IMG/VR virus record: IMGVR_UViG_3300007963_000007
Location: 1 to 59,061 of that record
DNA from: a virus
Taxonomy: Duplodnaviria; Caudoviricetes
Strand: one strand, 5' to 3'
DNA: 59,061 bases
In this document: one piece after another, positions 41,351 through 59,061 of the stretch
How positions within the stretch are numbered: position 1 is the first letter of the stretch
How the letters are laid out: every line of letters begins with the position of its first letter
The notes under the pieces: generated by a model
The model's input: the letters and a program-made list of their open reading frames with translations, nothing else
Told to the model about the DNA's origin: nothing
Database searches by the model: none
Made by a program: the position numbers and the translations under genes

Positions 41351-41580
41351 TTGTCACTCCCTATAATCACAGCCCTTCGGAACGAATATTCGCTGAAGAA
41401 CTTATGGTTATCTCGGCCTACTAAACTACCTTCATGGAAGTCATACGTTACCCCCTCCTTCAGAGTTATCACGGGGGGATCGTATAAGGCGCTGTTGTTC
41501 CCGCTTAATGCGCTCGGCGACTCGTTCCATTTGGAGCAAGCTGATAGGGTCACCAGAAGAGGCCAACCTATCAAGCTCAT
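41347..41580 (-). CDS. Outer-membrane lipoprotein, o-spanin-like
   Basis: MSLIGWPLLVTLSA-C lipobox; starts inside the upstream gene in another frame. Confidence 0.6.
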   Translation of the reverse strand: MSLIGWPLLVTLSACSKWNESPSALSGNNSALYDPPVITLKEGVTYDFHEGSLVGRDNHKFFSEYSFRRAVIIGSDK

Positions 41581-41674
41581 CTTGAAGATCGTCCAAGCGG
41601 TTGTCGCGTTTGAGTCTGATGTGTTCGATGTAGGCATTAAGGGCCGCAGTTAAAAGTTTAAAGAAGGAGGTCAC
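41441..41674 (-). CDS. i-spanin-like protein
   Basis: Weakly hydrophobic N-terminus plus coiled coil; overlaps the lipoprotein gene in Rz/Rz1 fashion. Confidence 0.45.
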   Translation of the reverse strand: MTSFFKLLTAALNAYIEHIRLKRDNRLDDLQDELDRLASSGDPISLLQMERVAERIKREQQRLIRSPRDNSEGGGNV

Positions 41675-41850
41675 TTAGACTTCGCCTTGCCGACATTCAA
41701 GGCCAACCACGATATTATGGTTGATACCTTCTGGATTATCCTATTATCACTTTCATTCGGTGTCATCGTTGCCACTAAGGAGGCGACAGCAACAACGCTT
41801 GCAGCAATTTGCAAAAGCATCTCTGCGTTTTCGGTAATATACTCAATCAT
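41671..41850 (-). CDS. Small membrane protein, holin-like (59 aa, not in ORF track)
   Basis: MIEYITENAEMLLQIAASVVAVASLVATMTPNESDN...ISWLALNVGKAKSK*. Confidence 0.65.
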   Translation of the reverse strand: MIEYITENAEMLLQIAASVVAVASLVATMTPNESDNRIIQKVSTIISWLALNVGKAKSK

Positions 41851-41867
41851 ATGCGAGGGGGTTAGTG

Positions 41868-42827: not shown

Positions 42828-42879
42828 ACCGAAGGGTAATAGCTAAAAGCCTTGAGGTCAAGATCTCTAACTTATGGGG

Positions 42880-44238: not shown

Positions 44239-44244
44239 TTACTA

Positions 44245-45492
44245 CTAATATGCAGGTGCGTGGACCGTCCACTTTGTTCTTAGATAACCACCCCGTGCAG
44301 GTTGTTGCTCGTCTCTAGCTACTATAGAGGCGGGGCGTTTGGCGGGTTTAGTTACGGGTACGTTTTTAATGTATACCTGATACTTGTAAACAGGGTCCAC
44401 AGTCCCTGTTGAGCAAACTAACTTACCCCCGTTCATTAAACATGGGGGGACCTGAAGTCTTACATAGGGAGTCCCAAATTGGAAGGACTGAGGCAGCATG
44501 GCTTTTGCTGCTACCGAAGAGAACTTAGTTTTAGACCACTGAATAGTAACTGTGGCTTGGCAAGGGCCACTATACGCTTCAGGTTCCATATGATACTCAG
44601 GAAAAGTCAAAAGTTGCCCGTCATGCTTTTCCCAAGCTACAATTTCTATGAAATCCAAAACAGGAGGCCATGAGTAATTCATAGACGTTTTATAATCTAT
44701 GACATCTATTAGGCCCTCGCCTCCTGTAGTTCCCGCGATTACTTCTTGTTTAACAACCTCAAACCAATCTGCGGATGCTTGTCTACCTTCTCTGTAAGCT
44801 GCGACTGATATGCCGTCAGCAGCAGTTACAGCGGTTTGCCACCAAGCGTTATCTGAGTCTACAACAAGAGCATCTATAGTAGCTTCCTCACCCGTGGGGG
44901 TTTCCCCAGTGTAGTAATAACTCAGTGTGCTTTTCAAATTCCGATTAGAAAGATCGTCCCACTTCAGTGTCTCGATATCTTCACGGACAAAATAGGTCCT
45001 CTGCTCAACAACAAACACGCCATCCAATTCACGATCTCCTATTCTTTTTTGATCGCGCCCCATTAGTATATACCCTTTCCCCGTAAAATTAGCGGCAGTA
45101 GGGGCAGTAGGCATATCAGTTCCTGCTACGACCGCGCTATCGTCTTCAGTAAATTCTGACCGCAGACTAACATACGTCCTAACAACTGTATTAAACTTAG
45201 TTTGACCAAGGCTCGCCTGTGAATACTCAAAGTTATACTCGTCCTGTGATGTCCTCGTATTAGCGTAGTAATACTCGTATAGCTGCCCTTGAGGGTCAGC
45301 TTGTTTTACATGAGCCAATACATGGTTGGGGAACTTATCAGTATCAGGGTGCGGGGTGCCGTAAACAGGCGGCGTATTCCCAACCCTTTGCTTGTCTACT
45401 GTCTCAAAGAACAAAAGATCCTGCACATTCGGGGAGACGAATGTGAGGACGGTCTGCCTCTGAGGGCTAGCTTGGTTCCTTTGAACGGGCAT
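44245..45492 (-). CDS. Probable virion structural protein
   Basis: 415-aa ORF in the tail operon. Confidence 0.55.
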   Translation of the reverse strand: MPVQRNQASPQRQTVLTFVSPNVQDLLFFETVDKQRVGNTPPVYGTPHPDTDKFPNHVLAHVKQADPQGQLYEYYYANTRTSQDEYNFEYSQASLGQTKFNTVVRTYVSLRSEFTEDDSAVVAGTDMPTAPTAANFTGKGYILMGRDQKRIGDRELDGVFVVEQRTYFVREDIETLKWDDLSNRNLKSTLSYYYTGETPTGEEATIDALVVDSDNAWWQTAVTAADGISVAAYREGRQASADWFEVVKQEVIAGTTGGEGLIDVIDYKTSMNYSWPPVLDFIEIVAWEKHDGQLLTFPEYHMEPEAYSGPCQATVTIQWSKTKFSSVAAKAMLPQSFQFGTPYVRLQVPPCLMNGGKLVCSTGTVDPVYKYQVYIKNVPVTKPAKRPASIVARDEQQPARGGYLRTKWTVHAPAY

Positions 45493-45686
45493 TATTCTAC
45501 GGCTTTATCGGGTGAGGTGTGTTCTGGGAGACTGTCATTTTCCAAAGAATTTACTCCTTCGGGGGCAGTAAACTTCTTGGCTAGTTTATGCGCTACTCCA
45601 GCAACAGGCAATCCTCCAGCTTTAACCGCTACATTGAGGACTTGGAGCATTGCGTTTTTTTCATGCTCTGTGAATTCAATTGTCAT
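45492..45686 (-). CDS. Small hypothetical protein (possible fibre chaperone)
   Basis: Coupled to the downstream gene; follows fibre genes. Confidence 0.55.
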   Translation of the reverse strand: MTIEFTEHEKNAMLQVLNVAVKAGGLPVAGVAHKLAKKFTAPEGVNSLENDSLPEHTSPDKAVE

Positions 45687-45719
45687 ATAGCCAGAAAGTA
45701 GAAGGGGTTCAGTTAGATT

Positions 45720-46010
45720 TCAACTATTTTCTTCCGCCAAGTCCGATTGATATTCCTCTGGCTGATGGCTCTGCCGCCACTGCTGATAATAATTTTCATT
45801 CTCTAAAGAAGCCGTTTCTTCGCTAGTAAGTAAAGCGCCCTCATCCTCTATCAGAAGGTAGGAACCACCGTCAGATGTTTCGGCAACAGTAAACGAGTAA
45901 AGATAAACCGTGTCATCTTCTGCTAGCTTAGGCCTCCCTAATTTATCCTCCCAAAGCTCTCTACTTCTTTGCTCGGCGTCACCAATATTTGCGAATTTTA
46001 AATAACGCAT
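45720..46010 (-). CDS. Hypothetical protein (fibre-associated)
   Basis: ATG at 46010, 4 nt after the lectin gene stop. Confidence 0.55.
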   Translation of the reverse strand: MRYLKFANIGDAEQRSRELWEDKLGRPKLAEDDTVYLYSFTVAETSDGGSYLLIEDEGALLTSEETASLENENYYQQWRQSHQPEEYQSDLAEENS

Positions 46011-46014
46011 AGTA

Positions 46015-46971
46015 TTACAAATCAATTTCGTTGTAGACGGCCATGTTTTTTTCTAGTGCGACTTGCAGGGCAGCAGAAAGCTGACTTTCCCAAACAAACG
46101 CTTCTCTACAGGTTCCATCTATAGGGTTTTTGTTGTCTTTCCTCGCTCCGATTCTAAATCTATTCCGATTCCCTATGTGTTTATCTTCGTTGGTGTCTTT
46201 AGTAGTCTCGGTGCCGTTGACTCTAAGTATCTGAGAATTCCCGTCTCCCCCTTGGGCGCTCGCCCTACTGCGGTCATACGATCCTATCACAACCATATTG
46301 GTGTCTGTAGGTTGACTAGCAGCACTTGCTAAGTCATGAGAATCTACAGACACATTATAAGCTACTGAAGTATTTCCAGTCAGTTCCACCCCATCATTAA
46401 AGTTATCTAAATCAACAAGCAGACCCGCCCCCCCACTGAAACTAAATATCTGCCCTGCCCAGACTAAAGTGAAATCGTCAGGACTGTTGGGTAGTCTGTA
46501 GTTGTTTACTTGGAAATAATCACCGTAAGCATAATGCCCCCCCACTGTTTCAAATTTTAAAGCATTTTTAGTCTTGGCCCCCGATACCATTAGAAGGGGT
46601 TGCCTACCTGATGTGGTTTGAACTGCATCTGGTGCAGTAGCATAACCACTCCAAGAGCCGCCCCCAGCTTGTGTGCTGGTATTACCACTTTGATTATACC
46701 ATTTGGGGACTGTAACGTCGCCGCCCCCTGCAAAATCCCGAAGCGTTGACCCTGCACTGGTCATGCTTTCGCTAGTGACTTCTTTATCGTTATAAAACTC
46801 GACATCAGCTTCGGTGCCGCTTGAGTTCCTCACTCTTAACGCATACCCAGTATAAGCGGCACGGAGTTTTCTTAAACTGTATGCCAGCCTAGCAGTGGGC
46901 ATTCCGCTTATGTCAAGAGGGGGGATAACATTTCTCTGGAATAACCCCGACAGTGACGGTCTTATAATCAT
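46015..46971 (-). CDS. Concanavalin A/LamG-like lectin-fold protein, putative receptor-binding
   Basis: AYSLRKLRAAYTGYALRVR...WYNQSGN...Q....QP and LRVNG...IGAR...G...E motifs. Confidence 0.7.
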   Translation of the reverse strand: MIIRPSLSGLFQRNVIPPLDISGMPTARLAYSLRKLRAAYTGYALRVRNSSGTEADVEFYNDKEVTSESMTSAGSTLRDFAGGGDVTVPKWYNQSGNTSTQAGGGSWSGYATAPDAVQTTSGRQPLLMVSGAKTKNALKFETVGGHYAYGDYFQVNNYRLPNSPDDFTLVWAGQIFSFSGGAGLLVDLDNFNDGVELTGNTSVAYNVSVDSHDLASAASQPTDTNMVVIGSYDRSRASAQGGDGNSQILRVNGTETTKDTNEDKHIGNRNRFRIGARKDNKNPIDGTCREAFVWESQLSAALQVALEKNMAVYNEIDL

Positions 46972-49049
46972 GTCAAATTACCAAAGACTGCATAAGTATT
47001 AGACGCGATCCTAACAATAGTCGCAGGTTGATACCCTTGAGCAAGGGTGACCGTGCCATCGGTAGTCCCATTAATCACCATGCTATTTGAGGCAGTTATA
47101 TCGAGGTCAGCATTAGGGTTCACTACAGAAACATTAAACCCTACTCCAAGATCCCCAGTAATTGAGAGGTCATCGAAGTTAGCGTGGGTTCCGCTGATAA
47201 AGGTCCCATTGTCCGCAGCAACTAAAGTATAGTCCGCAGTTTTTTCTGACACACTAACCCCACCTTTGATATCTCCAGTAACGGTAATCGAATCAACGTA
47301 AGCGTCTTTCCATCGAACGCCTGTAGTTCCTAGATCTACATCACTGTCGGACTCAGGGCCAAAAACATTATCTGCAAGATACACCTGCTCTACGTTAGCC
47401 GCGTAAAAGTGAATCTCATCCGCAGTCTCAAAGTCGATCTTTGTCTGGTCGTCTTCCCCGATTTTGATATCAGTAGCTAGTAAGGAAGTAATTCCTGTCT
47501 GCGCGGCGTCTACAGTAAAGTCAATAGTCCCGTCCCCGTCTTCGTAAGCCACAGTAATGCCAGTCTCGGTATTACCCGTTAACATCGCGCCTACGATGTC
47601 TTGGATCTCTTCCGCCGTCTGGTCTGCGGTAGCTCCAGCTTCAATGCCATCTAGTTTAGTGTGGTCGGCAGATGTAAAGTTCTCATCAGTCTGGGAAGCG
47701 ACTACGAAATCTAAAGTGCCATCACTGTCCTCGTAGGTAACTGTAATACCAGTCTCGGTATTACCCGTTACCATTGCGCCTACAAAATCTTGAACTTGTT
47801 CAGCAGAAAGCTGAGTGTTTGTATCGGTCGCGTCAATAACGCCCGAGCTATCAATGCTTATATTTGTCCCCGCAGATATCTCGTTAAGAGTTACGTCTGC
47901 CCCCGCGTCGATACCGTCCAGTTTAGTGTGGTCGGCAGATGTAAAGTTCTCATCAGTTTGAGAAGCAACTACGAAGTCTATCGTGCCGTCTCCGTCTTCG
48001 TAGGTAACAGTAATACCAGTCTCGGTGTTTCCCGTTAACATCGCGCCTACAATGTCTTGAATCTCTTCCGCTGTCTGGTCTGCGGTAGCTCCAGCTTCAA
48101 TACCGTCCAGTTTAGTGTGGTCGGCAGATGTAAAGTTCTCATCAGTTTGAGAAGCGACTACGAAGTCTATCGTGCCGTCTCCGTCTTCGTAGGTAACAGT
48201 AATACCAGTCTCGGTATTTCCCGTTAACATCGCGCCTACGATGTCTTGGATCTCTTCCGCCGTCTGGTCTGCGGTAGCTCCAGCCTCTATACCACTGAGT
48301 TTACTAACCGCTGTATCGAGAGCAGCCCCATCAGCAGAAATATCGCGTCCGTCAACAGTATCGCCAATCGACATGGCTATGTTGCCAGACATGGTCCCCC
48401 CCGCGAGGGGGAGCTTAGTCGCTATCGAATTAGTTACTGTTGTCGAGAACGAGGCGTCATCGCCCAATGCAGCGGCAAGCTCATTTAACGTGTTGAGCGC
48501 CGCAGGACTGGAATCAATTAAATTGGTGATCTGAGTCCCCACATAAGATTGTGTGGCGTAACTTGAAAGGTCTTGGTCTGCGGTAGCTCCAGCTTCAATA
48601 CCGTCCAGTTTAGTGTGATCGGCAGATGTAAAGTTCTCATCAGTTTGAGAAGCAACTACGAAGTCTATCGTGCCGTCTCCGTCTTCGTAGGTAACAGTAA
48701 TACCAGTCTCAGTATTTCCCGTTAACATCGCCCCTACCATGTCTTGAATCTCTTCCGCCGTCTGATCAGCAGTAGCGTTAGCTTCAATACCGTCCAGTTT
48801 AGTGTGGTCGGCAGATGTAAAGTTCTCATCAGTTTGAGAAGCAACAACAAAATCTAAAGTGCCGTCACTGTCCTCGTAGGTAACCGTGATACCCGTCTCG
48901 GTATTACCAGTTACCATGCCCCCTACAACATCTTGAACCTCCTCGTTTTCTACAGGAGGGGTTGTTGTTGAGACGGTAACAGTGTTGTCTGCCTGAGTAA
49001 CCGAGACAGAGTTTGTATTCTGTGTTACAGATACGCTTTCGTTAGCCAT
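46968..49049 (-). CDS. Tail fibre protein with tandem 63-aa repeats
   Basis: Fibre motif LIDSSPAALNTLNELAAALGDD...KLPLAGGTMSG plus six repeat units. Confidence 0.8.
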   Translation of the reverse strand: MANESVSVTQNTNSVSVTQADNTVTVSTTTPPVENEEVQDVVGGMVTGNTETGITVTYEDSDGTLDFVVASQTDENFTSADHTKLDGIEANATADQTAEEIQDMVGAMLTGNTETGITVTYEDGDGTIDFVVASQTDENFTSADHTKLDGIEAGATADQDLSSYATQSYVGTQITNLIDSSPAALNTLNELAAALGDDASFSTTVTNSIATKLPLAGGTMSGNIAMSIGDTVDGRDISADGAALDTAVSKLSGIEAGATADQTAEEIQDIVGAMLTGNTETGITVTYEDGDGTIDFVVASQTDENFTSADHTKLDGIEAGATADQTAEEIQDIVGAMLTGNTETGITVTYEDGDGTIDFVVASQTDENFTSADHTKLDGIDAGADVTLNEISAGTNISIDSSGVIDATDTNTQLSAEQVQDFVGAMVTGNTETGITVTYEDSDGTLDFVVASQTDENFTSADHTKLDGIEAGATADQTAEEIQDIVGAMLTGNTETGITVAYEDGDGTIDFTVDAAQTGITSLLATDIKIGEDDQTKIDFETADEIHFYAANVEQVYLADNVFGPESDSDVDLGTTGVRWKDAYVDSITVTGDIKGGVSVSEKTADYTLVAADNGTFISGTHANFDDLSITGDLGVGFNVSVVNPNADLDITASNSMVINGTTDGTVTLAQGYQPATIVRIASNTYAVFGNLT
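47514..48944 (-). repeat. Six copies of a ~189-bp coding repeat, arranged as three pairs
   Basis: Unit EEIQDIVGAMLTGNTETGITVTYEDGDGTIDFVVASQTDENFTSADHTKLDGIEAGATADQTA; last copy partial. Confidence 0.9.
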
Positions 49050-49450
49050 TATCCTGTAATTTCGGGTAAGATATCAAACGTGAGTCGGATATGGTGGACT
49101 GTTTCGCCAGAGGAATTTAGCGTAATCTTTAAATCCCCATATACCGTTATTGCTTCATTGGGTAGTAGAGTAGCTTGAGCTGTGTTCCACAGAAGCTGAA
49201 TGTTGGGTCCAGCGGAGGATTCGTAGGTCAAAGTAATGCGACTGTCCGCTTCTGCTACCGCTGTGCCACTTGTTGCCCCATGACGTAGTGTGTCAATGAC
49301 ATGCCCCATAAAACTATCCCCACGCTTACGGCGAATAACTAGCTCTGCATCATAGCCCGAGCTAAGATCCAAGGCATCGGAAGCCCCCGCAAGTTTGTAG
49401 GTCACATCTACTGTTTGTTGTTGTCCTCGTTGTAATTGTATATTCGCCAT
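49049..49450 (-). CDS. Probable tail/fibre attachment protein
   Basis: LDLSSGYDAELVIR...YGDLKIT resembles BppU-like adaptor domains; coupled to the fibre gene. Confidence 0.5.
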   Translation of the reverse strand: MANIQLQRGQQQTVDVTYKLAGASDALDLSSGYDAELVIRRKRGDSFMGHVIDTLRHGATSGTAVAEADSRITLTYESSAGPNIQLLWNTAQATLLPNEAITVYGDLKITLNSSGETVHHIRLTFDILPEITG

Positions 49451-49452
49451 AA

Positions 49453-50103
49453 TTATGCTTCAGTTAAAGTGAACCGATAATCAACTGCGGCGATTAGTTT
49501 CACCTCCGTATCGCCAGCATATAAACCCGTTAGATCCTTTGTGGTGGTCCCATCCAACTCATAGACCGTCCCAGTAGTGGAGGCGTCGGAAGTTGTCTTC
49601 ATTATGAAATGAGGACCAGCCGAAGTGTGGACAGTGCCAGTAGACCCCCCACCATTTGCAGTAGCATACATCAGATAAGTCCCCGCTGTTGTGACCGCAG
49701 AATCAAATGTAATTACACCAGCCGTTGTGAATGACGCTACCGGATGGCTCGTCAGGTCGGCTATCTTTGAACGGGCAAAAACTGGGTGATCTCCCCCCAC
49801 AGAAATTAGATTCACTATACCTGCGGGTATGCTTACGTCCCAATTGGTTCCCCCATCCATGCTTAATTCAAGCGCACCTACTGTATTGATATTTACAATA
49901 AGGAGTAATCCTTCTGCTGCATCCAACAACGAAGCATCTAAAGCGGCTCCGTTGTTGCTGTTGTTCGTAGCTCTCCCTCCCCCAGCAGAATAATTAGGTG
50001 CGGGGTTAGCGAATGTTAAAGCAGATGAAGTGGTGTTAAATGTTTCGTTATGGGCATGAGTCCCATACACAAGTCGAACATTCCCAGATATCGAATTTGC
50101 CAT
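49453..50103 (-). CDS. Probable virion structural protein
   Basis: T/A/G-rich; first gene after promoter TTGTAA-N17-TATAGT (50109-50137). Confidence 0.55.
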   Translation of the reverse strand: MANSISGNVRLVYGTHAHNETFNTTSSALTFANPAPNYSAGGGRATNNSNNGAALDASLLDAAEGLLLIVNINTVGALELSMDGGTNWDVSIPAGIVNLISVGGDHPVFARSKIADLTSHPVASFTTAGVITFDSAVTTAGTYLMYATANGGGSTGTVHTSAGPHFIMKTTSDASTTGTVYELDGTTTKDLTGLYAGDTEVKLIAAVDYRFTLTEA

Positions 50104-50192
50104 GCGTAACTATAGAATTAAGTCAACAAAATTACAAGCGTCACATCATGACTAAATAGTTGACTTGAAGAAACTATATCTGAATATCAGGT

Positions 50193-50915
50193 ATGCCGAC
50201 TAAGCATCACAAAATATTTATCGCTACTCCCGCATTCGGACATCAAGCGTTTATTGCCTACGTCAATGGGCTAATTAAATTTATGTCCACCCCTGTTCCA
50301 GAAGACCTTAGCTATGAAACGGTTGTCCATTTACACGCAGGGTCGGCAAATATTTCGCACGCACGAAACAATTGTGTCCGTGCTTTCTTAAAGTCTGACT
50401 GCACTAAGATGCTGTTTATCGACGCAGACATAGGGTTTGCCCCCGAAAACATCCACAACTTGTTGAGAAAGGATGAAGACGTAATGATGGCCCCATACTT
50501 AGCAAAGAGTGTTCAGGGGGTAGAGGGGGGCAGGTTCATAATTCATTTCCCCGAAAAACGGCCTATTGAGGTGGACGAGGACGGGTTTACCAAAATTGAT
50601 GCAGGTCCTGCTGGGTTCTTAATGATAGACCGAAGTGCCTTTACAAAAATAATGGAGAAATTCCCCGATAAAGAAGTCCCGTTAAAGCAGGTTCTGAGCG
50701 ACAAATTTATTGAGTTGAAGGACTTCTACACGTTCTTTGACTGCATAACCACCAAAGAGCATGGGGCTATGGGGGAAGACATATCTTTCTGCCACTTGTG
50801 GAAGTCAACAGGTGGGGAAATATATTGCGACACAAGGGCTGTGCTAATCCATTGTGGCATTACTCACTTCACTTCTTCGCTTAAAAGGACAATTGAAGCA
50901 AGTAACGCGCAGTAA
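50193..50915 (+). CDS. GT-A fold glycosyltransferase
   Basis: IFIATP, ISHARN, LFIDADIGF (DxD), AGFLMIDR, GEDISFC...GGEIY.D...L.H.G. Confidence 0.8.
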   Translation: MPTKHHKIFIATPAFGHQAFIAYVNGLIKFMSTPVPEDLSYETVVHLHAGSANISHARNNCVRAFLKSDCTKMLFIDADIGFAPENIHNLLRKDEDVMMAPYLAKSVQGVEGGRFIIHFPEKRPIEVDEDGFTKIDAGPAGFLMIDRSAFTKIMEKFPDKEVPLKQVLSDKFIELKDFYTFFDCITTKEHGAMGEDISFCHLWKSTGGEIYCDTRAVLIHCGITHFTSSLKRTIEASNAQ

Positions 50916-50916
50916 A

Positions 50917-51666
50917 TTATTTCAATACAGATTTTCTGCCATACATATACAGGGCGAATCGGTCTGGATCTTCCGCTGCCATCCTTCGTAGCCGTGGGTC
51001 ACTATCAATAGTGTCTTTAATACGCTGCATTTTTTCTCGGTCCATGGAGGAGTTAGGATCAAACGTATCCCCCATAACGATATTAAACACAGATTCAAGA
51101 TCCACATTGACTTTCTCTGCTTCTGTTTCTTCCGCAACAGCGACCTCTTCAGGAGTAGGTTCTTTGTCTCCTTCATCGGCCATTATCTCTTCAGCCATTT
51201 CAGTTGCTTTAGGGGCAACGGGCGCTTGAGAAACTTCTTCAGCAGGAGTTTCCGGTTCTGCTGCTTCAGGTGCCATATCCTGTTTTATTTCCCCTAACTC
51301 TTCTTCCGAAGGAGGGGCAGGGTCTGCTGCGGGAGCAGGTTGCTCTTCGGGGTCGGGGGTTTGTTGCGCTCCATAACGTATGGGGTTTTCTCCTCCTTCT
51401 GCCATACCTACTTCTTTACGAGGGTCGGCGTCAGTAACGGGGTCGTCTGAAGCTAGTGCTTCTCTCGGATCATTAAGTCTCCTTAACATTTCTTTTACTG
51501 ACATATCCCCTTCATCTCCTTCTGCCCCTGCTGGTTCCCCTGCTTGAGGAACTACTTCGTCAAAGAAGGCTTTTCTAATTCCTCCTACGTTGATACCTGC
51601 TTTTTCTAGTGAACCAATCAAGGACTCTATACTAGCAAGGTTTTCCTTTAGTGTTTTATCTGCCAT
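50917..51666 (-). CDS. Acidic, Pro/Glu-rich hypothetical protein
   Basis: 249-aa ORF downstream of the capsid gene terminator. Confidence 0.6.
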   Translation of the reverse strand: MADKTLKENLASIESLIGSLEKAGINVGGIRKAFFDEVVPQAGEPAGAEGDEGDMSVKEMLRRLNDPREALASDDPVTDADPRKEVGMAEGGENPIRYGAQQTPDPEEQPAPAADPAPPSEEELGEIKQDMAPEAAEPETPAEEVSQAPVAPKATEMAEEIMADEGDKEPTPEEVAVAEETEAEKVNVDLESVFNIVMGDTFDPNSSMDREKMQRIKDTIDSDPRLRRMAAEDPDRFALYMYGRKSVLK

Positions 51667-51677
51667 TGTTCTTTTAA

Positions 51678-51715
51678 GAAATGCGGGGCAGTGATCCGAA
51701 AACCACTGCCCCGCG
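51678..51715 (-). terminator. Intrinsic terminator after major capsid gene
   Basis: GCGGGGCAGTG/CACTGCCCCGC stem followed by ATTTCTT on the minus strand. Confidence 0.75.
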
Positions 51716-51737
51716 AGTTATGAGTGGAATTTATAAA

Positions 51738-53129
51738 TTAAACTCCAGCGGCAGTTGTGTTGCGCTTAAAGATGATCGTGTAACCGAAGTCGGTCTTGAT
51801 CGGCTTAGAAGCGGAAGCAAGGACACCACGGAAGAATCCGATTGTCCCATCTGGATTCGCTGCCTCTGACAAGATATTCTTCCACTTAAAGTCTCCTTGA
51901 TAAGAGACGGGGTCGAATGTCACGCCACCAGCACCACTGAAGGGTTGCGGAATCTGGGATTCAAACACTTCAGGGTGGATTACGAATGCGGCTTCAAACG
52001 GAGCGTTATCGTAATCGGCGTTGTCTGTGACAATACCGTTAGTGACCTTGTAGGGATATACAACGTCGAGGGTGTTGCCAGCGGACTGACCGCTACCAAG
52101 TGCGACTGCGTAACGAGGAGTGAGGTCGTCAATCAGGTGGTAGAAACCACGGAAGGACTTCTCAACTCCGAGCGGAGCAATCAACTCGGACACGCGAGCG
52201 TTGTTGTAACGAATGTCATCTCGGAAAGCGGTGCTTTCGGTCATCAGACCGTAAGAAGCCTCCGACGAACAAACGAGGGCAAATACTGGGCGACCGTTTT
52301 CACGGCCATAAGCATTGCGTCCCGCTCCTTTGCGGACCAACTGGTTGTAGACTTTATCCAACACTGCATTGGAGATATCACCAGTAACACCAGAAGCGGT
52401 GTCATCGGATACGCCAGCAGATGCATCATCTACAGTTCCAACAGCGGTGTTTCCAGAGACACCATCCTGATCCCTCAGAAGGTCACCTTCATTACCCGTG
52501 CTGAAATATGTGCCACTGGTGCGACAAGCTACGGTGTTGTCGGAAAGACGGTCGAACTCGTCACGGTAACGGGTTTCCCAAGTCCACCGAGTAGCCTCGG
52601 CAAGGGAATCCATTACAGCACGAAGCTGTTCTTGGCGGTGTGCGGCGTAACGCAAGTCGTCAACATTGATGCGAGGCGACTCAAGAACCGACCGCTTGAT
52701 GTTGTATTGCTTGATTACCTTACTGAAGTTGACGTATCCACGCCTGTCTCCAGAAGTCCCAAGGTTAGTTCCTCCGGGGCCATTGGCACCTTGGACCTGA
52801 TCGGCTGCGTCAGCAATAGGCTGATCGAGCATGGAAGAACCAAACTCGTTAGCTGCTGCCACAAGGCCAACATCGTCCCAGTTAGCTCCGAGAACATCCC
52901 CATCATCGTCAGTAGTTGGGAGCGCACGGTCGTATACCAAAGTGGTAAGTTTGTAGCCCATCCCATCAGGGAAGGACGATTTTTTCACAAGATCAATCCA
53001 AGGGGAAGTGTGGTTAACGCGCTTATGGATATCAGATCCAATACGGTTAGCCTCTTCAGCAAGGATTGTATCGATAGCAGTTGATGACGCAGTTGTGAAA
53101 TCTGCGGTTGCTGAATCTCTAGAAGCCAT
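51738..53129 (-). CDS. Major capsid protein
   Basis: 463 aa; portal-scaffold-capsid order; own promoter and downstream terminator; assignment mainly by synteny. Confidence 0.75.
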   Translation of the reverse strand: MASRDSATADFTTASSTAIDTILAEEANRIGSDIHKRVNHTSPWIDLVKKSSFPDGMGYKLTTLVYDRALPTTDDDGDVLGANWDDVGLVAAANEFGSSMLDQPIADAADQVQGANGPGGTNLGTSGDRRGYVNFSKVIKQYNIKRSVLESPRINVDDLRYAAHRQEQLRAVMDSLAEATRWTWETRYRDEFDRLSDNTVACRTSGTYFSTGNEGDLLRDQDGVSGNTAVGTVDDASAGVSDDTASGVTGDISNAVLDKVYNQLVRKGAGRNAYGRENGRPVFALVCSSEASYGLMTESTAFRDDIRYNNARVSELIAPLGVEKSFRGFYHLIDDLTPRYAVALGSGQSAGNTLDVVYPYKVTNGIVTDNADYDNAPFEAAFVIHPEVFESQIPQPFSGAGGVTFDPVSYQGDFKWKNILSEAANPDGTIGFFRGVLASASKPIKTDFGYTIIFKRNTTAAGV

Positions 53130-53149
53130 TGTTCAAAAAAAGTAAAAAT

Positions 53150-53324
53150 TAAAAAAAGAAGTTATCCCCCTGCGTAAGTGCAAGGGGCCGGATATTGGTA
53201 TTGCGAACCGCTTTTAGAACTATTTAAGGCTAGAGCAACCTTTAGCAGCACGTTTGCAGGAACACAGCCCTACCCGAAATGACTTATTTGGTAGAACTAA
53301 TTAATGGCTAGAGCAACCTAAGTC
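53150..53324 (-). ncRNA. Candidate tandem cis-regulatory RNA in the capsid 5' leader with terminator-like hairpin
   Basis: Two copies of AGGTTGCTCTAGCC-N5/6-TAGTTCTA, each closed by a different stem, then CCCCTTGC/GCAGGGGG and a T-tract. Confidence 0.55.
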
Positions 53325-53338
53325 GTATTCTTAAATAA

Positions 53339-53367
53339 AAACTAAGTTTAATTTTTTATTTTGTCAA
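53339..53367 (-). promoter_or_regulatory. Promoter for capsid gene
   Basis: TTGACA-N17-TAGTTT, about 200 nt upstream of the capsid ATG. Confidence 0.65.
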
Positions 53368-53393
53368 CCCCTCTTTTGCTAGGGGATAGGCGT

Positions 53394-54581
53394 CTACAGC
53401 CTCCCGCTAAAAGCAGCTTCTACTCTGTCCTCGAAAGAGCGATCATCTGGTTTCCCGTCAACTACTTGCTTGGACGAAGGTGAAGCCCCAGACATAGTAG
53501 GCTCAGAACTCTCATACTCTGCCAATCGGTCAGTTAGTAGCTCGTTCTCTTTTCGCATACCAACATACTCTTTCACAATAGAGGGAAGAAGTTGGGCGCT
53601 AATAGAATTGTAGGTAAAATCTACAGGGTGTATTGACTGAGGGTCGTTTTCAGCGGCTTTCGATTGGATCGCCTCCATGTCTAGCCCTTCGATACCACTA
53701 AGAAACGGCAGCTTCTTTTGAACCCGTGAGGCTACATTTCTGGCTGCGTTTTGCCTATCCTGTAGTCTTTCTGCGGCATCTGCTTCAGATTGTTTTTCTG
53801 CGGCCAAGTTAGCTTCACTCAAGGCTTCCTTGGAATTTTCCATCATCGCATTGCGGCGTTCCATAATAGGGGTGATGTCTTCAATAATTCTAAACACCTT
53901 GGCCCTGTCTCTGTCAGTCGCATCAATCAAAAGCTCGCCCAGCTTTTCGTCCTGCTCTGTTGTATCCTCAATAGTAAAAGAATCGATCAAGGCTTCCTCA
54001 TCGATATTATACCTTTCTGCAATCTCGGTAGCACTGTCTACCAAAGAGTTAAGTGGTTCTTCGATAGCTGTTTTGTAAGCGTGAGTTTGCTCCAAATTAG
54101 AAATCAATTGAGATTTTTCGTATTCATCAATACGTTTTTGAAGAGTCTCAACGTCTTTGTTTTCTACAGCCCCGGTCAATTCTTTTAGCTTAGACGAACT
54201 CTCAACCTGCTCCTGTCGGAGTTTGTGCAACTCTGTTGTTGCTTCCTTCAACTCTGTCTTTAATTGCTTGAACCTAGATGCAGCTTTCGGGGTCCAATCA
54301 TCCGATATCTCTTCATCAAGGGTGTCTGTAGGGTCGAACTGTTCTTCCTCTGCCTCTGGTTCCTCCTTCTCGGGTTCCTCCTTCTCGGGTTCCTGTTTTT
54401 CAGGTTCTTCCTGTTCAGGTTCCTCAGTTTTAGTTTCCTCTTCGACTTCAGGAATATCCAAATTAGAAAATGCTGCGTCTAGGGCGCTAGCAAAATCAAG
54501 TTGGTCTTCTGACGTATCAGGCAATTCCTCTACGGAATCAGCAGTATCTACGGCTTCGGCAGTGGCTGTATCTTCGCTCAT
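53394..54581 (-). CDS. Capsid scaffolding protein
   Basis: Very acidic N-terminus with (K/Q)EEPE-type repeats, coiled coils; lies between portal and capsid. Confidence 0.7.
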   Translation of the reverse strand: MSEDTATAEAVDTADSVEELPDTSEDQLDFASALDAAFSNLDIPEVEEETKTEEPEQEEPEKQEPEKEEPEKEEPEAEEEQFDPTDTLDEEISDDWTPKAASRFKQLKTELKEATTELHKLRQEQVESSSKLKELTGAVENKDVETLQKRIDEYEKSQLISNLEQTHAYKTAIEEPLNSLVDSATEIAERYNIDEEALIDSFTIEDTTEQDEKLGELLIDATDRDRAKVFRIIEDITPIMERRNAMMENSKEALSEANLAAEKQSEADAAERLQDRQNAARNVASRVQKKLPFLSGIEGLDMEAIQSKAAENDPQSIHPVDFTYNSISAQLLPSIVKEYVGMRKENELLTDRLAEYESSEPTMSGASPSSKQVVDGKPDDRSFEDRVEAAFSGRL

Positions 54582-54582
54582 T

Positions 54583-54879
54583 TTATTCTATGTGGGTCCA
54601 CTCGTTTAGACTAACGGTGCTAGTTTTTGTAGTGTCGGGCAACTTTGTTAATTTTTCAAGGTCATTAAAAGCATCTCTGTAACCCGCATACCATGCGTGT
54701 CGCAAGTTGTTCCCTTCTGGGTTCTGCAAAGACCCATAAGAGGGACCTGCTACTTCTTTTAATATGGCGACAGCTTGTTTAAAGCTACCTGTATTTATAG
54801 CTTCTCGTAGTTCTTGGACAGACTTTGTGTCTCGGAACCACTGCGCTACCGGAATCGGTGGAGTCGGATGTTTAGGCAT
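54583..54879 (-). CDS. Small head-module protein
   Basis: Between portal and scaffold. Confidence 0.6.
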   Translation of the reverse strand: MPKHPTPPIPVAQWFRDTKSVQELREAINTGSFKQAVAILKEVAGPSYGSLQNPEGNNLRHAWYAGYRDAFNDLEKLTKLPDTTKTSTVSLNEWTHIE

Positions 54880-54883
54880 TTAG

Positions 54884-57136
54884 TTACGCTTTGTCGCGGA
54901 AGTCTAGCGCAGCTTCGGCGTCTCGTATAGCCATTTCTTGTTCATGTTTTTTCTGCTTGATGGCCATCTCCAACTCAGCTTTTTCCTGCGCGATCTGCAT
55001 CTTTATATCATGCTCCTGCATCTTCATCCCCTGCTTCTCTGCCATAACTGCGTCTTGATCAATCTCTTGACCTTGGGCTTGCATCTGGGCTTGCTCGGCT
55101 TGCATCTGGTCACGTTGTATTTTCTGCGCGGCTTTAAGTGCGTTGTTGATTGCTTCTTCAGCAAACTGCAACACTTGTTTTGTATTAGCGACCATGCCCT
55201 CTAGGGCGGGGTCACCTGCTGCCAATTGAGCAGTATCGCTAATATGCTGATACATGACTTGTAGGACAGGCAAGACCTGAACCAAGTCAGCTTGACCAGT
55301 ATTAATTGCTTCAATCAATTGATTGAGAACAGGAACATGGACTTCCAAATGAGTCCCGTGCATTTCATTGGGGATGACAGGGATGTTGTTGCCTTGTTGC
55401 AATTGCAGGTTTTCAAACAACGCAATCTTAACATCTACTGTAGGACGCTTCTCAACTTCCGCAGGAACATAACGATTAGCTAGATCGTGACCAACACGGG
55501 TCGATACAATGTCTCTAGTCAGGTTGCGTCTGCCTACATCATCAAACTGTCCGCTAATTGCTTGCAGTTCTTTGAGGGCGACTGCTCTGTTTGCATAAGA
55601 TCCACTGCCGATGGATCTAACAGCGCGGGTCCGGTTAACATCAAGGGTATTAATAAACGCTTCAGGTATTCCACGCTTCGCGCACCTATTATAAAAATCG
55701 GTTATAGCTGCGTCTCGTTTTTTGGTCGTAACCACACGACGAACTACTTCTCTCAACAGTCTAGTCCACGAAGCGTAGAAAAGGTTTAGGGATGCCCCAG
55801 ACAATCTGGTCGTAACATCCATGTCAGCAACCACCTGCATCTGGTTCCGGTAGGGCGAACTCTGGGTAGGCCCATACGTGCTAACGGTATCGGTATTCAA
55901 CTGGAGTTGATTACTCAGGTCTTCCAGTGCAGGTTGAACCGCAGTCCCCAGATTGGGGATGGCTTTCTCAACAATCTTTACATTGGGACTCATCACGGCG
56001 TATGCACCGTAGTAAGTGAACTGCAACTCGTCCAAGGACCGTTGGTTCTCAGGCTGGATCATGATCGCAGATGAAAGCATCGCCCCGTCAATCTGCTGAC
56101 AACGGAGACGATTGCTTGTCTGAACATGAGCAAAGATACGTTGGCCAAGTCCGCGAACTGAATGGTAGGTCCCGTTAGACCCGACCCCATACGTAAACAT
56201 TACATAAGCCTGTTCTGCGTTTTGATACCTAGAAACTTTCTTATATAGGAAATCTTTCGGGCTGTTCTCAGCCGCCATGTAGTGGCTGATCGAACCGTCC
56301 ATTTCCTTAACCCAGAAATGCAAAACAGCTACTGTCGGGTTTTGAATCCCCGTGTGGATGTCGTTGTTCTTCATCTCCTGTTGGATAGCCTCGTAGTCGT
56401 CCAAAAGACTAGAGGATTGCCCACGCCTACCCTTGGTGCTGGCATTCTCAGAAATGACACGCTTTACCTCTTCCACATTCCAACCAACACTTTGTGCGGC
56501 CTTCTCATTCTTGATGAACCCATAAAGTTCATGCAAAAGATATTGTCTGCGGCCCACAGCTACATCGATACAGGATTCGGATGCAGGGGTCTGACGGGGG
56601 ATTAGAATATCCGTGAACCCGCCAACCCTGAACTTCCAATCGTCAGGGGTGTCAAAGTAAGCGATAGATACTCCGTGCTTAATGAACGTGGTGCAAAGAC
56701 GTAGGTAAGAACTGTGGAACTCGGGCCATGAGCGCATTAAGTGCGTTAGCTCATCAGCAACGATGTCTTCCATGGGGGCAATCTCGCTTTTCTCCCCCAT
56801 AGTCCCGCGAACTTCTACGAGACACTCCAAACTGGAATAAAGGTCCACATAAGCGGATAACGCAATATCCAGTAAGCGTTGTGCTTCCCCGAAATTCAGG
56901 TTCGTTTTCAGGGGTTGACCGCTCGTTTCCAGTCTCGTCTGGTTGTAAGGTGCGGCCCCGTCGAACATTGCGTCCACTCTCGCCCTGTTAATAGCGGACT
57001 TTTCGTCTGCTTTAGCTAGGGTTTTAAATATAGAAAGGGCGCTATTTACGTTTTTTAAACGAGTTTCAACCGGATTCCCTTTTTCTGTGAGGGCGTCAAG
57101 TTCCAGCCCGTCGATGTCTAAAGGGTGATCGTTCAT
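54884..57136 (-). CDS. Portal protein
   Basis: 750 aa; YHSVRGLG motif; Q/E-rich coiled-coil C-terminus; heads the capsid module. Confidence 0.75.
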   Translation of the reverse strand: MNDHPLDIDGLELDALTEKGNPVETRLKNVNSALSIFKTLAKADEKSAINRARVDAMFDGAAPYNQTRLETSGQPLKTNLNFGEAQRLLDIALSAYVDLYSSLECLVEVRGTMGEKSEIAPMEDIVADELTHLMRSWPEFHSSYLRLCTTFIKHGVSIAYFDTPDDWKFRVGGFTDILIPRQTPASESCIDVAVGRRQYLLHELYGFIKNEKAAQSVGWNVEEVKRVISENASTKGRRGQSSSLLDDYEAIQQEMKNNDIHTGIQNPTVAVLHFWVKEMDGSISHYMAAENSPKDFLYKKVSRYQNAEQAYVMFTYGVGSNGTYHSVRGLGQRIFAHVQTSNRLRCQQIDGAMLSSAIMIQPENQRSLDELQFTYYGAYAVMSPNVKIVEKAIPNLGTAVQPALEDLSNQLQLNTDTVSTYGPTQSSPYRNQMQVVADMDVTTRLSGASLNLFYASWTRLLREVVRRVVTTKKRDAAITDFYNRCAKRGIPEAFINTLDVNRTRAVRSIGSGSYANRAVALKELQAISGQFDDVGRRNLTRDIVSTRVGHDLANRYVPAEVEKRPTVDVKIALFENLQLQQGNNIPVIPNEMHGTHLEVHVPVLNQLIEAINTGQADLVQVLPVLQVMYQHISDTAQLAAGDPALEGMVANTKQVLQFAEEAINNALKAAQKIQRDQMQAEQAQMQAQGQEIDQDAVMAEKQGMKMQEHDIKMQIAQEKAELEMAIKQKKHEQEMAIRDAEAALDFRDKA

Positions 57137-57145
57137 TATTGGCCT

Positions 57146-57212
57146 ACTCTACTTATTTAATGAAACTAGTCAATCGTTTAGAAGTTGACATTGAATAGGT
57201 AAAGGCTAAGTT
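57146..57212. promoter_or_regulatory. Back-to-back promoters for portal (-) and lipoprotein (+)
   Basis: Minus: TTGACT-N16-TAGAGT (57146-57173). Plus: TTGACA-N16-TAAGTT (57185-57212). Confidence 0.75.
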
Positions 57213-57220
57213 CGCGGCTT

Positions 57221-57436
57221 ATGAAAGCAATCCTGATTAGCTTCGCGGCGGTGTCTTGTGTCTTGTTTGGTGTATCCTGTAGTTCTGCGGGACTTAACGG
57301 AAGTCTTCCAATCCCGTTCACAAACCCACCAACTAACGTAAAAGGGGAGATCGCGGTCACACCGCTTCCTCCAAAACTGTGCGTTGGATTGGATGTAATC
57401 CCGCGACCTGAACCCGCACCAGCGGAAGAGAAGTAG
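57221..57436 (+). CDS. Small lipoprotein
   Basis: MKAILISFAAVSCVLFGVS-C signal peptide/lipobox; own promoter. Confidence 0.7.
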   Translation: MKAILISFAAVSCVLFGVSCSSAGLNGSLPIPFTNPPTNVKGEIAVTPLPPKLCVGLDVIPRPEPAPAEEK

Positions 57437-57438
57437 CG

Positions 57439-57936
57439 TTACTCAGAGTAACTACTCTCATCCCCCCAGAGTTGTCGGACTAGTTTATCTACTCTGACAT
57501 CTCTGGGGGTTTTTGTGTATATACTTGATAACTTCACGTAGGAGTGGCCCTGCTTGGTAAACTCACTAAGCATGAAAACTTCCCCAGCCCTCGGACCCGT
57601 CTTCTTCGGGTTGATCCGGTAAACGGCCCCGTAATGTGAAACCGCATAATCTGGGTATTCAGGGACTACCTTGGCCCCGTCCTCGTTCAGCACCCAATCC
57701 TTTGTCAGGGGTTTGTAATCGGGGTCGTCAATCTTGGAATGGTTGAAGCGATACTGCTTGCCCTCCTTATTACGGATAATCGTGTAGGTGTTGTATCCGT
57801 CCCACTGCTGCTTGAGCATCCTGCCCGTCTTCAGGTTGAACACAAAACCCTTGGGTGATAGAACATATTGGCTAGCTGCCTTCGGTATTCCACGGAACCC
57901 GTCCGGTGGCCAGTAGACCCATTTATCGTCAGACAT
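57439..57936 (-). CDS. Tandem NUMOD4-like domain protein lacking an HNH nuclease motif
   Basis: IPKAASQYVLSPKGFVFN and VPEYPDYAVSHYGAVYR...RVDKLV resemble two NUMOD4 units. Confidence 0.55.
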   Translation of the reverse strand: MSDDKWVYWPPDGFRGIPKAASQYVLSPKGFVFNLKTGRMLKQQWDGYNTYTIIRNKEGKQYRFNHSKIDDPDYKPLTKDWVLNEDGAKVVPEYPDYAVSHYGAVYRINPKKTGPRAGEVFMLSEFTKQGHSYVKLSSIYTKTPRDVRVDKLVRQLWGDESSYSE

Positions 57937-57942
57937 AATTCA

Positions 57943-58010
57943 AAAGTTTCCTGTTAAGGTTAGAGCTAGTTGTAAGTTACAATTAGGTATATAATAACAC
58001 AAGAAACTTT
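57943..58010. repeat. Symmetric palindromic element, copy 1
   Basis: AAAGTTTC...TTGTAAGTTACAA...GAAACTTT; second copy at 58609-58678. Confidence 0.8.
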
Positions 58011-58026
58011 TTCAAGTTGTTTGTAG

Positions 58027-58147
58027 ACGCAAAACCGCCCCTCCCATGGGATTACCTGCGCTAGATCTCCTGTTGAAACTCCCAACCCACTCTGAATCAG
58101 GCAACGTGGATCACTAACAAGGTTTCATGGCGAGGGGCGGTCTGCGT
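58027..58147 (-). ncRNA. Candidate ~110-nt small RNA
   Basis: Promoter TTGTAA-N16-TATTCT (58149-58176) fires into a ~25-bp terminal stem; no ORF longer than a few codons from the first ATG. Confidence 0.5.
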
Positions 58148-58221
58148 GAGAATAGGAAGCAGGGTGGGGGTTACAAGTCGAAAAGGGGAGCTAAATTCGA
58201 CATATGTTAGTAACGTGTCGA

Positions 58222-58527
58222 TCACTCTGATTTTGCCGCTTTAAGCGTATATAGCTCGTCCATTAGCTTTTCAACACGCTTTTGAAGCTCCGAGATATGA
58301 AGATCCTGTCGTGTATCCGAAGGGAGTTCACCACTTCCCCATTTTCCGGCAGGCCATTTTTCCACAAATTCAGCATTTTTAGTCACCGTGCGCTCCAACA
58401 TCTGAATTTGAAAGTCGTTGTGCTGAACTTCAGAGTTCAGATTAGACGCCCACCAAACGATTCCTGCTGCCTGAACCGCGAGTCCCGCATAAAGCGTAAG
58501 TTTAGAATCTGTTTTGGGGGTGGCCAT
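58222..58527 (-). CDS. Membrane-anchored coiled-coil protein
   Basis: N-terminal TM (LYAGLAVQAAGIVWWA); promoter TTGACT-N16-TACGCT (58537-58564). Confidence 0.65.
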   Translation of the reverse strand: MATPKTDSKLTLYAGLAVQAAGIVWWASNLNSEVQHNDFQIQMLERTVTKNAEFVEKWPAGKWGSGELPSDTRQDLHISELQKRVEKLMDELYTLKAAKSE

Positions 58528-58608
58528 TTAACCACTAGCGTATCAGCGTAGCGGTTTAAGTCAATCCACCGTGCAGGGGGGTTTAGCGGGATCTCAAAAA
58601 CTATATTA

Positions 58609-58678
58609 GAAAGTTTCCTGTAGAGAGTATAGCTAGTTGTAAATTACAATAAGGTATATATTAGTCTAGAGAACTTTC
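58609..58678. repeat. Symmetric palindromic element, copy 2
   Basis: GAAAGTTTCCTGT...AGCTAGTTGTAAATTACAAT.AGGTATATA...AACTTTC. Confidence 0.8.
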
Positions 58679-58924
58679 GATTTCCTTTTTGCGAGCCTCT
58701 TTCTTTTTGGCATACGCTTCCGCACGGCTTTGCAGGATTTTTGCTTTGTGCTTTAGGTAGTATTGCTTGTTGTAATTCTTCCTAGCGTCAAACTTTTCGG
58801 GGTCCTTGAGTTCCTCCATGCGCCGTTTAGCCCGAATACGCTCTCTGTTTTTAGCATAATACTGGCGCTGGTATTCCCTACGCGCCTCTTTGTTACGCTC
58901 GTAGTAATTAATGTTCTGCTCCAT
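58661..58924 (-). CDS. Small basic helical protein with YY..(N/H)(K/R) repeats
   Basis: YYERNKE, YYAKNRE, YYLKHKA; promoter TTGACC-N16-AATAAT (58933-58960). Confidence 0.65.
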   Translation of the reverse strand: MEQNINYYERNKEARREYQRQYYAKNRERIRAKRRMEELKDPEKFDARKNYNKQYYLKHKAKILQSRAEAYAKKKEARKKEIESSLD

Positions 58925-59061
58925 ACGGCTTAATTATTCGTGCAATCGGGATTTGGTCAAGTTTTTTCCCAGAGGGGGGATATATACACCTCGGTGCTGG
59001 AGAAAAACCCCCACCCCACCCGTCGCGTCTCGACCTCGGCTCCGCGCCCGTGGTCCCTGCA

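Follow-up and report, generated by a model that had tools for sequence, protein, structure and literature searches.

The capsid locus and its phage

The window analyzed here, a stretch of 59,061 nucleotides from an uncultured virus record that is about 98% complete, carries on its minus strand a predicted major capsid gene preceded by a leader with two similar structured units (Table 1). An AlphaFold2 model of the encoded protein (mean pLDDT of 60, built on 34 homologs) was compared with known structures. The ten best Foldseek matches in the PDB were all phage capsid chains, led by those of cyanopodophage Pan3 and N4 (9vye at E 6e-3; N4 9e99 at E 8.7e-3). In BFVD an unnamed protein ranked first, followed by an "N4-gp56 family major capsid protein" and a "Major capsid protein", and most of the named matches were capsid proteins. 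The scores are weak (best E of 6e-3 in the PDB and 8.3e-4 in BFVD, TM about 0.3), which is attributed to the moderate confidence of the model, and gene 53129-51738 is accepted as the probable major capsid gene. The capsid, scaffold-like, portal-like and 4775-amino-acid proteins had no match in Pfam or PHROGs. The capsid N-terminus (window 53129-52990, residues about 17-47) is unusually conserved: L23, E26, A27, R29, I30, D33, H40, S42, W44 and D46 are invariant in a set of 34 sequences whose identity to the window protein is otherwise 54-65%.

The phage family is widespread, uncultured and marine, without a cultured relative. Its family A DNA polymerase shares at most 28% identity with any deposited phage, and searches of 50,697 deposited phage genomes with the capsid and portal-like proteins (tblastn) and with the leader (blastn) returned no match. 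The single 4775-amino-acid ORF is of a size typical of giant virion proteins in N4-like phages and of virion RNA polymerases, and N4 is also among the best fold matches of the capsid. A Shine-Dalgarno-like motif was detected for one of the 29 long ORFs of the window.

Table 1. Features of the capsid locus and the long ORF, in window positions.
Feature	Position	Strand	Description	Basis
Single ORF	14086-28413	-	4775 amino acids; no Pfam family	
Post-capsid hairpin	51683..51714	-	14 bp, G+C-rich, just past capsid stop	terminator scan
Major capsid protein gene (predicted)	51738..53129	-	463 amino acids; HK97 fold, N4-gp56-like	structure model matches
Start region	53130..53165	-	G-poor, A/U-rich stretch to ATG, without Shine-Dalgarno site	
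Hairpin 3	53166..53187	-	CCCCUUGC-ACUUAC-GCAGGGGG; stable, C-rich/G-rich	sequence
Unit 2	53207..53249	-		sequence; covariance model 44.1 bits; P1 and pseudoknot covariation
Unit 2 P1	53249-53244 / 53212-53207	-	GCTGCT/AGCGGT pair, two G.U pairs	
Unit 2 S1	53240-53238 / 53230-53228	-		
Unit 2 L1	53237-53234	-		
Unit 2 pseudoknot	53233-53231 / 53222-53220	-	CUA / UAG	
Unit 2 L3	53227-53223	-	UUAAA	
Unit 2 tail	53219-53215	-	UUCUA	
Middle hairpin M	53256..53273	-	GUA-GGGCUGUGUUCC-UGC; optional module between units	
Unit 1	53281..53324	-		sequence; covariance model 38.9 bits; P1 and pseudoknot covariation
Unit 1 P1	53324-53319 / 53286-53281	-	GACTTA/TAAGTC pair	
Unit 1 S1	53318-53316 / 53308-53306	-	GGU / GCC	
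Unit 1 L1	53315-53312	-	UGCU	
Unit 1 pseudoknot	53311-53309 / 53299-53297	-	CUA / UAG	
Unit 1 L3	53305-53300	-	AUUAAU	
Unit 1 invariant tail	53296-53292	-	UUCUA	
Sigma-70-type promoter (predicted)	53339..53367	-	-35 TTGACA 53367-53362, 17-nt spacer, -10-like TAGTTT 53344-53339	

Two tandem pseudoknots in the capsid leader

An original prediction for this DNA had described two units on the minus strand (53281-53324 and 53208-53248), in tandem between a promoter and the capsid ATG, with identical cores and with closing stems that differ in sequence but pair in both. The letters of both units were confirmed as given, identical cores and pairing stems are present in the window, and the same layout between promoter and ATG is seen in relatives. 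Unit 2 can be delimited as 53248-53208 or, with one extra G.U pair, as 53249-53207. The 13-mer GGTTGCTCTAGCC has exactly two sites in the window, one in each unit, and the other 14 listed matches carry two to three mismatches each; the 8-mer TAGTTCTA follows it after 6 nt in unit 1 and after 5 nt in unit 2. When a covariance model of one unit was run over the whole window with filters off, the same two units alone were retrieved, and the next-best match reached 10.4 bits (E=4). The tandem structured RNA is therefore a real feature of this leader.

The proposed fold held for cores and closing stems but overlooked a pseudoknot within each unit. Each unit is best read as an H-type pseudoknot enclosed by a variable helix, P1. 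A CUA made up of the final two loop bases and the base next to them pairs with UAG, the opening three bases of the downstream conserved block. This pairing was evaluated in a plain MAFFT alignment of 64 distinct units from capsid-anchored loci and is kept in 255 of 256 cells. Pair one is found as A:U (45), G:C (16), C:G (1) and U:A (1), pair two as U:A (54), C:G (9) and U.G (1), and pair three as C:G (60) and U:A (4), with double changes at three pseudoknot pairs. The covariation score was 0.405 compared with 0.190 for shuffled alignments (reached by none of 500), and versions with slid partners scored at most 0.119. A kissing interaction between the two loops through the palindrome CUAG was considered and rejected, since the variants CUGG, CUCG and CUUG lose the palindrome and keep the downstream pairing.

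The S1 helix consists of three pairs, GG-N/N-CC, of which the two G:C pairs were set by the search pattern and the third is found as U.G (43), C:G (13) or U:A (8). Loop L3 is A-rich and measures 5-9 nt in units of the window's kind (type A). Each unit has 21 invariant nucleotides, 11 of them unpaired, and these 21 core nucleotides are identical in the window and 76 other contigs, even though the capsid proteins are just 54-65% identical to that of the window. One clade (L085, L086, L103) carries two substitutions in both units, from GCUCU to GUUCU in the loop and from UUCUA to UCCUA in the tail, a variant represented by three distinct unit sequences (two from L085 and one from L086; L103 repeats those of L085). 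The joint change suggests that the two pyrimidines face each other, and it could be either a swap of facing pyrimidines or a joint adaptation to a partner. In seven other loci (L007, L023, L048, L057, L058, L060, L069) the tail of unit 1 reads UUCAG instead of UUCUA, unit 2 keeps UUCUA, and the middle hairpin is absent. Pairing of the UUCUA tail with UAGAA was rejected as a family feature: in a set of 41 leaders UAGAA occurs within 35 nt of the ATG in 7 and in the 22 nt preceding unit 2 in 4, and many of these sequences are related.

Covariation of the closing helix was measured over 111 distinct rows in an alignment that was fitted to the covariance model. In this alignment 87% of the P1 cells hold a standard pair, whereas with slid 3' partners 17-51% of the cells do so over the whole structure, and double changes are found at all seven P1 pairs. 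The whole-structure covariation score was 0.425, compared with 0.113 after shuffling (reached by none of 500) and at most 0.079 with slid partners. A check that is independent of the model alignment compared cognate with non-cognate flanks; stems of at least 6 bp were formed by 39 of 64 cognate unit-1 flanks compared with 17% of non-cognate ones, and by 21 of 54 cognate unit-2 flanks compared with 21%. The description of conserved cores with covarying stems thus applies to a genuine structured RNA. Among 607 P1 cells G.U was far more frequent than A.C (71 versus 11), which places the fold on the capsid-sense strand. Applied to a plain MAFFT alignment of whole leaders, RNAalifold recovered the small inner hairpins and nothing more, as the P1 arms are out of register in that alignment. 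In single-sequence folding, the minimum free energy of the window leader was no better than that of shuffled sequences (z = -1.26) and the corresponding structure did not reproduce the comparative fold, so that the evidence for the fold is comparative and not thermodynamic.

Distribution of the motif

The exact search pattern (13-mer, 4-8 nt, 8-mer) was found in 77 viral contigs, namely the window and 76 others, and a slightly relaxed pattern in at least 116 metagenome stretches. The one-unit covariance model gave exactly two matches per source in 76 sources and none elsewhere at E<=1 in 781,570 bases. Among the sequencing runs listed as containing the window DNA, 21 were DNA runs and none was an RNA run. 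Start-to-start spacing of the two units ranges from 52 to 81 nt. A capsid homolog lies downstream at 74 of 78 loci and the remaining four are cut; in a second set this holds for 79 of 85 loci (78 found by the motif and L191 with a variant motif), while five were too short and one (L218) is a chance match inside a coding region.

To the motif-based sets an unbiased sample was added in which relatives were collected by their capsid (159 relatives, 80 kept, 81 loci). Type-A-like units were found at 54 of the 81 loci, a second leader type (type B) at 20, and two loci (L131, L156) are divergent. The five loci outside these classes comprise two contigs (L087, L113) of sources in which two units are present (L059, L062), one locus (L116) with a type-B-like unit recognized by eye, and two that are cut (L132, L148). 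With the exception of L131 and L156, all capsid relatives with readable leaders have at least a variant unit.

Type B leaders, found in about a quarter of the capsid relatives, contain a single variant unit whose L3 is 15-25 nt long and holds an inserted hairpin with covarying stems and mostly GNRA-like loops. The unit is preceded by another small hairpin. Examples are L001 (2711-2970) and, at about 900-1200 each, L101, L110, L117, L123, L134, L136, L139, L143, L145 and L147. A conserved block after the type B unit holds a hairpin like the middle hairpin of type A. It also contains GAAGC, which might form a second pseudoknot with a GCUUC loop in a hairpin further on; in the L145 lineage both sides are altered, to GGA(U)GC and GCUCC.

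The relaxed pattern also matched five contigs in four metagenome-assembled genomes (MAGs) titled Acidimicrobiaceae, Opitutae, Blastopirellula and Verrucomicrobiales, that is, two Verrucomicrobiota, one planctomycete and one member of the Acidimicrobiaceae. In these four MAGs the model matched phage-like contigs only, and among 151 genomes from the phylum of the Opitutae MAG (G002) it matched that MAG alone, apart from one chance match in a coding region. The scarcity of Shine-Dalgarno motifs, the TTGACA/TAnnnT promoter boxes described below and the MAG titles, the binning of phage contigs being weak host evidence, hint at a host that does not use Shine-Dalgarno pairing.

A conserved capsid cassette

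The match of the window promoter to the sigma-70 pattern is by itself not above chance (4 found versus 2.55 expected). Among 42 representative leaders, however, 41 contain TTGACA or TTGCAT 42-53 nt before the unit-1 core together with a TAnnnT box at a distance of 15-19 nt (17 nt in 28 of them), and the end of the -10 box lies 14-26 nt from the core. Transcription starts approximately 7 nt past a -10 box, and P1 of unit 1 would accordingly begin about 0-7 nt from an mRNA start that is predicted from the promoter consensus only. The units keep a fixed distance from the promoter and a variable one from the ATG, with 41-122 nt between the end of unit 2 and the start codon. The cassette promoter is located just after the scaffold-like gene. 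In four relatives (L090, L093, L099, L104) a G/C-stem hairpin with a T-run after it either holds the capsid -35 box in its loop or immediately precedes this box. This overlap would act as a terminator-promoter that ends upstream transcripts and restarts transcription at the capsid cassette. At 53385-53368 the window has a hairpin (CCCCT/AGGGG) without a T-run.

The hairpin past the capsid stop heads the list of terminator-like sites for 40000-59061 and has the most stem pairs. A hairpin of -20 to -34 kcal/mol is present within 110 nt after the capsid stop in all 36 relatives compared, beginning 0-18 nt after the stop in 33 of them, and at least four T residues in the 8 nt past the hairpin are found in 21 of 36. 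We read this hairpin as the 3' end of the cassette, serving as terminator and/or 3' stabilizer. Promoter, knotted leader, capsid gene and strong 3' hairpin form one conserved cassette.

Between the units, 26 of 41 representative leaders contain a middle hairpin with the 12-nt motif G-R-R-Y-N3-G-N2-Y-C and three closing pairs. Two of its pairs covary, pair 2:11 being G:C in 17 leaders and A:U in 9, and pair 3:10 being G:C in 13, G.U in 12 and A:U in 1. Downstream of unit 2, the CCCCTTGC/GCAGGGGG hairpin of the original prediction is present at 53187-53166, but its interpretation as a terminator did not hold. The T-run begins 5 nt past the stem, and the hairpin was picked up in neither the terminator scan nor a lenient scan. 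Most relatives likewise have a C-run/G-run hairpin after unit 2 without an adjacent U-tract, and of 41 diverse relatives only 4 have even a lenient terminator-like site between unit 2 and the ATG. A terminator before the capsid gene, on which the resemblance to tandem riboswitches had been based, is thus not supported.

The last 40 nt before the ATG are poor in G (mean of 41 leaders: A 0.34, C 0.22, G 0.10, T 0.34), and no Shine-Dalgarno-like motif precedes the capsid ATG in any of the 41. Predicted pairing is not higher in the start region than elsewhere in the leader (unpaired fraction of 0.54 versus 0.46). In these 41 leaders no conserved riboswitch expression platform, either a terminator or sequestration of the start site, was detected in a non-exhaustive search for alternative pairings.

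Relation to described RNA families

In agreement with the original prediction, which did not recognize a known family, no Rfam 15 family was identified. At gathering thresholds the whole window gave no match. For 53100-53420 at E<=10 only aspC (E 2, opposite strand) and RUF6-5 (E 3.4) appeared, both far below gathering, and the loci of twelve relatives, including type B, yielded one chance-level match (E 0.61). A description of such a capsid leader was not found in the literature searched. In PMC10690425, 8,495 candidate structured RNAs are predicted from IMG/VR intergenic regions. In the part of that report available to us, the T4 gene 32 operator is mentioned, no individual capsid-leader motif is named and the word "tandem" is absent; the motif may be among its candidates, listed without description. 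Judged from sequence comparison, the units appear to represent a new structured-RNA family of a generally known kind, the phage cis-acting leader RNA. Their build, tandem P1-enclosed H-type pseudoknots at the predicted 5' terminus of an mRNA, is unusual.

Possible functions of the unit pair

Fold, strand, position relative to promoter and ATG, restriction to a single gene and cassette architecture are directly supported, and from these we infer a function. The preferred reading, to which we assign a probability of about 0.4, is that the unit pair works constitutively and in cis as a module at the 5' terminus, protecting the mRNA and/or loading ribosomes. The capsid mRNA would be short, running from the host-type sigma-70 promoter to the very strong post-capsid hairpin; the two units would make up its extreme 5' end and would raise capsid output after initiation. 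The compact knotted fold may shield the 5' end from 5'-end-dependent decay, may serve as a standby or loading platform for ribosomes in a host without Shine-Dalgarno pairing, or may do both. A switch that opens and closes a terminator is not favored.

Several features suggest this direction. A geometry that is fixed with respect to the promoter and loose with respect to the ATG points away from a terminator switch or occlusion of the start and toward a role at the 5' end or in transcription. The lack of both terminator and Shine-Dalgarno site likewise argues against a terminator-type switch and start-site occlusion. A role at the 5' end or during transcription is also suggested by the heavy structure at both ends of the short capsid mRNA and by the occurrence of the element once per genome, at the gene that needs the highest output. 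The capsid cassette around T7 gene 10 has its own promoter, a structured leader, the capsid gene and a terminator. The cassette described here resembles it, and leaders with 5' stabilizer hairpins, in that a single capsid gene has a strong promoter dedicated to it, a structured 5' end and, past its stop, a strong hairpin. Stabilizer hairpins, however, are simple and have no conserved sequence, whereas each unit has 21 invariant nucleotides and a covarying pseudoknot.

This difference is also the main argument against a stabilizer. Eleven invariant unpaired nucleotides per unit, kept across phages with capsids of 54-65% identity, are more than a plain stabilizer needs. Invariance to this degree would rather be expected where a ligand pocket is formed or conserved machinery binds, and it suggests either demanding tertiary contacts or a conserved partner, which keeps a protein operator, a riboswitch and a polymerase-binding element in play. 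The version in which the fold blocks an exonuclease was left without host support: RNase J (TIGR00649), the 5'-to-3' exonuclease of bacteria, scored over the curated cut-off in only one of the four candidate-host MAGs, which are incomplete and weakly linked to the phages as hosts. As the type B unit is preceded by a small hairpin, the 5'-terminal position is not universal either.

An operator bound by a protein is considered unlikely. The identical cores would form a bipartite site, recognized either by a host RNA-binding protein or by a protein of the phage (capsid, scaffold or late regulator), and the bound protein would time or autoregulate capsid synthesis. Repeated identical cores with invariant loop and tail and the confinement of the element to one gene per genome fit such a site, and the two substitutions shared by both units of the L085 lineage could reflect a changed partner. 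On the other hand, 41-122 nt and a hairpin separate the units from the ATG, which makes direct occlusion unlikely. If the partner were encoded by the phage, it and its site should drift together, but 76 contigs have the same 21-nt core although their capsids share only 54-65% identity with that of the window, and no RNA-binding domain was recognized by Pfam among 17 window proteins. The translational operator of T4 gene 32 combines a 5' pseudoknot with an unstructured A/U-rich stretch. By analogy, a protein may nucleate on the pseudoknots and spread over the G-poor stretch toward the ATG. The capsid leader shares with this operator its location in a phage mRNA, the 5'-side pseudoknot and the unstructured stretch to the start codon; it differs in that the capsid is not a single-strand binding protein, in having two knots and more hairpins, and in the lack of sequence similarity.

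Less probable still is a riboswitch, in which each pseudoknot would be a small-molecule aptamer and the tandem arrangement would sharpen a response that gates capsid production. Small pseudoknot riboswitches are characterized by an H-type knot, an A-rich L3, invariant unpaired nucleotides, variable stems and a position in the 5' leader. All of these are found here together with the tandem arrangement and an optional inserted hairpin. The units share with preQ1-I and tandem riboswitches the short S1, the helix between loop and 3' strand, the A-rich L3, the invariant unpaired nucleotides, the 5' leader position and the tandem copies. An aptamer-like conserved fold with covarying stems, as expected of a tandem riboswitch, is thus present, and invariance across divergent phages suits an unchanging ligand. 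What speaks against this assignment is the absence of a conserved platform in the leaders compared (terminator-like sites in 4 of 41, no Shine-Dalgarno site, start region not sequestered). Unlike riboswitches of the preQ1-I type, the units match no Rfam 15 family at E<=10, have an extra enclosing P1, and are found only before the capsid gene, with no copies outside phage-like contigs in the four MAGs and 150 further genomes apart from one chance match. An aptamer class restricted to phages, reading a small molecule such as a nucleotide-pool or a stress or immune signal and setting the fate of the capsid mRNA, is similarly improbable; if true, it would be the first case of a riboswitch-like sensor that serves specifically a virion structural gene. 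Nearly as novel would be a phage counterpart of the flavivirus xrRNAs, a self-sufficient knot that mechanically blocks 5'-end-dependent decay. In the part of the xrRNA literature available to us, these elements are described as tandem folds of a junction plus a pseudoknot, highly conserved in sequence, by which the RNA on their 3' side is protected with no protein involved, a protection that the units would share. They belong to the 3' UTRs of eukaryotic RNA viruses and form a ring around the 5' end, whereas the units lie in a phage 5' leader.

Hardly better or worse placed is a modifier of transcription, in which the nascent units would bind the host RNA polymerase and render it resistant to pausing and termination, by analogy with put of phage HK022. 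As far as the accessible part of PMC9378689 describes it, putL, an RNA of about 70 nt with two stem-loops, follows closely on PL and makes contact with the zinc-binding domain of beta'. Like putL and putR as described there, the capsid leader element is promoter-proximal, phage-encoded and built of two stem-loop modules, would act in cis without a dedicated DNA site, and is present once per genome (put, once or twice). Its position directly downstream of a host-type promoter at a fixed distance and the unusually long-stemmed hairpins at the cassette end would suit this role, and a universally conserved partner would account for the invariance. The put RNA is, however, one rigid V-shaped body of roughly 70 nt with two stems and a triplex, whereas the units are two repeated pseudoknots at a variable spacing of 52-81 nt, with only one in type B leaders. 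Put precedes early operons with terminators, while the units precede one late structural gene with no terminator in between.

An element acting as DNA, either a double-stranded operator or a DNA-hairpin promoter for a phage RNA polymerase, is very improbable: the exact sequence is conserved next to the promoter and the 4775-amino-acid protein presumably falls in the size class of virion RNA polymerases, but this protein has no Pfam match, the helix arms covary and are free in sequence, the G.U excess marks a strand-specific fold, the pseudoknot covaries, and between the conserved blocks lies a spacer of 5-25 nt with room for a hairpin, a variation that a binder of duplex DNA would not tolerate. 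The inserted hairpin of type B in particular rules out the double-stranded operator, and homologs do not keep the core at the expense of the pairing, as had been envisaged for a DNA operator, but retain both P1 and the pseudoknot with covariation.

Implications for phage gene expression

The motif is sharply defined, abundant and strongly covarying, and it accompanies what is presumably the most highly expressed gene in an uncultured marine phage family. These phages do not use Shine-Dalgarno sites, and the leader is an obvious candidate for the means by which they would achieve massive translation of their capsid. With a fold of about 45 nt and natural compensatory variants it is directly testable. 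Any outcome would add a device to phage gene expression, be it a stabilizer, a ribosome-loading element, a polymerase modifier or a sensor, and the leader may serve as a compact expression part.
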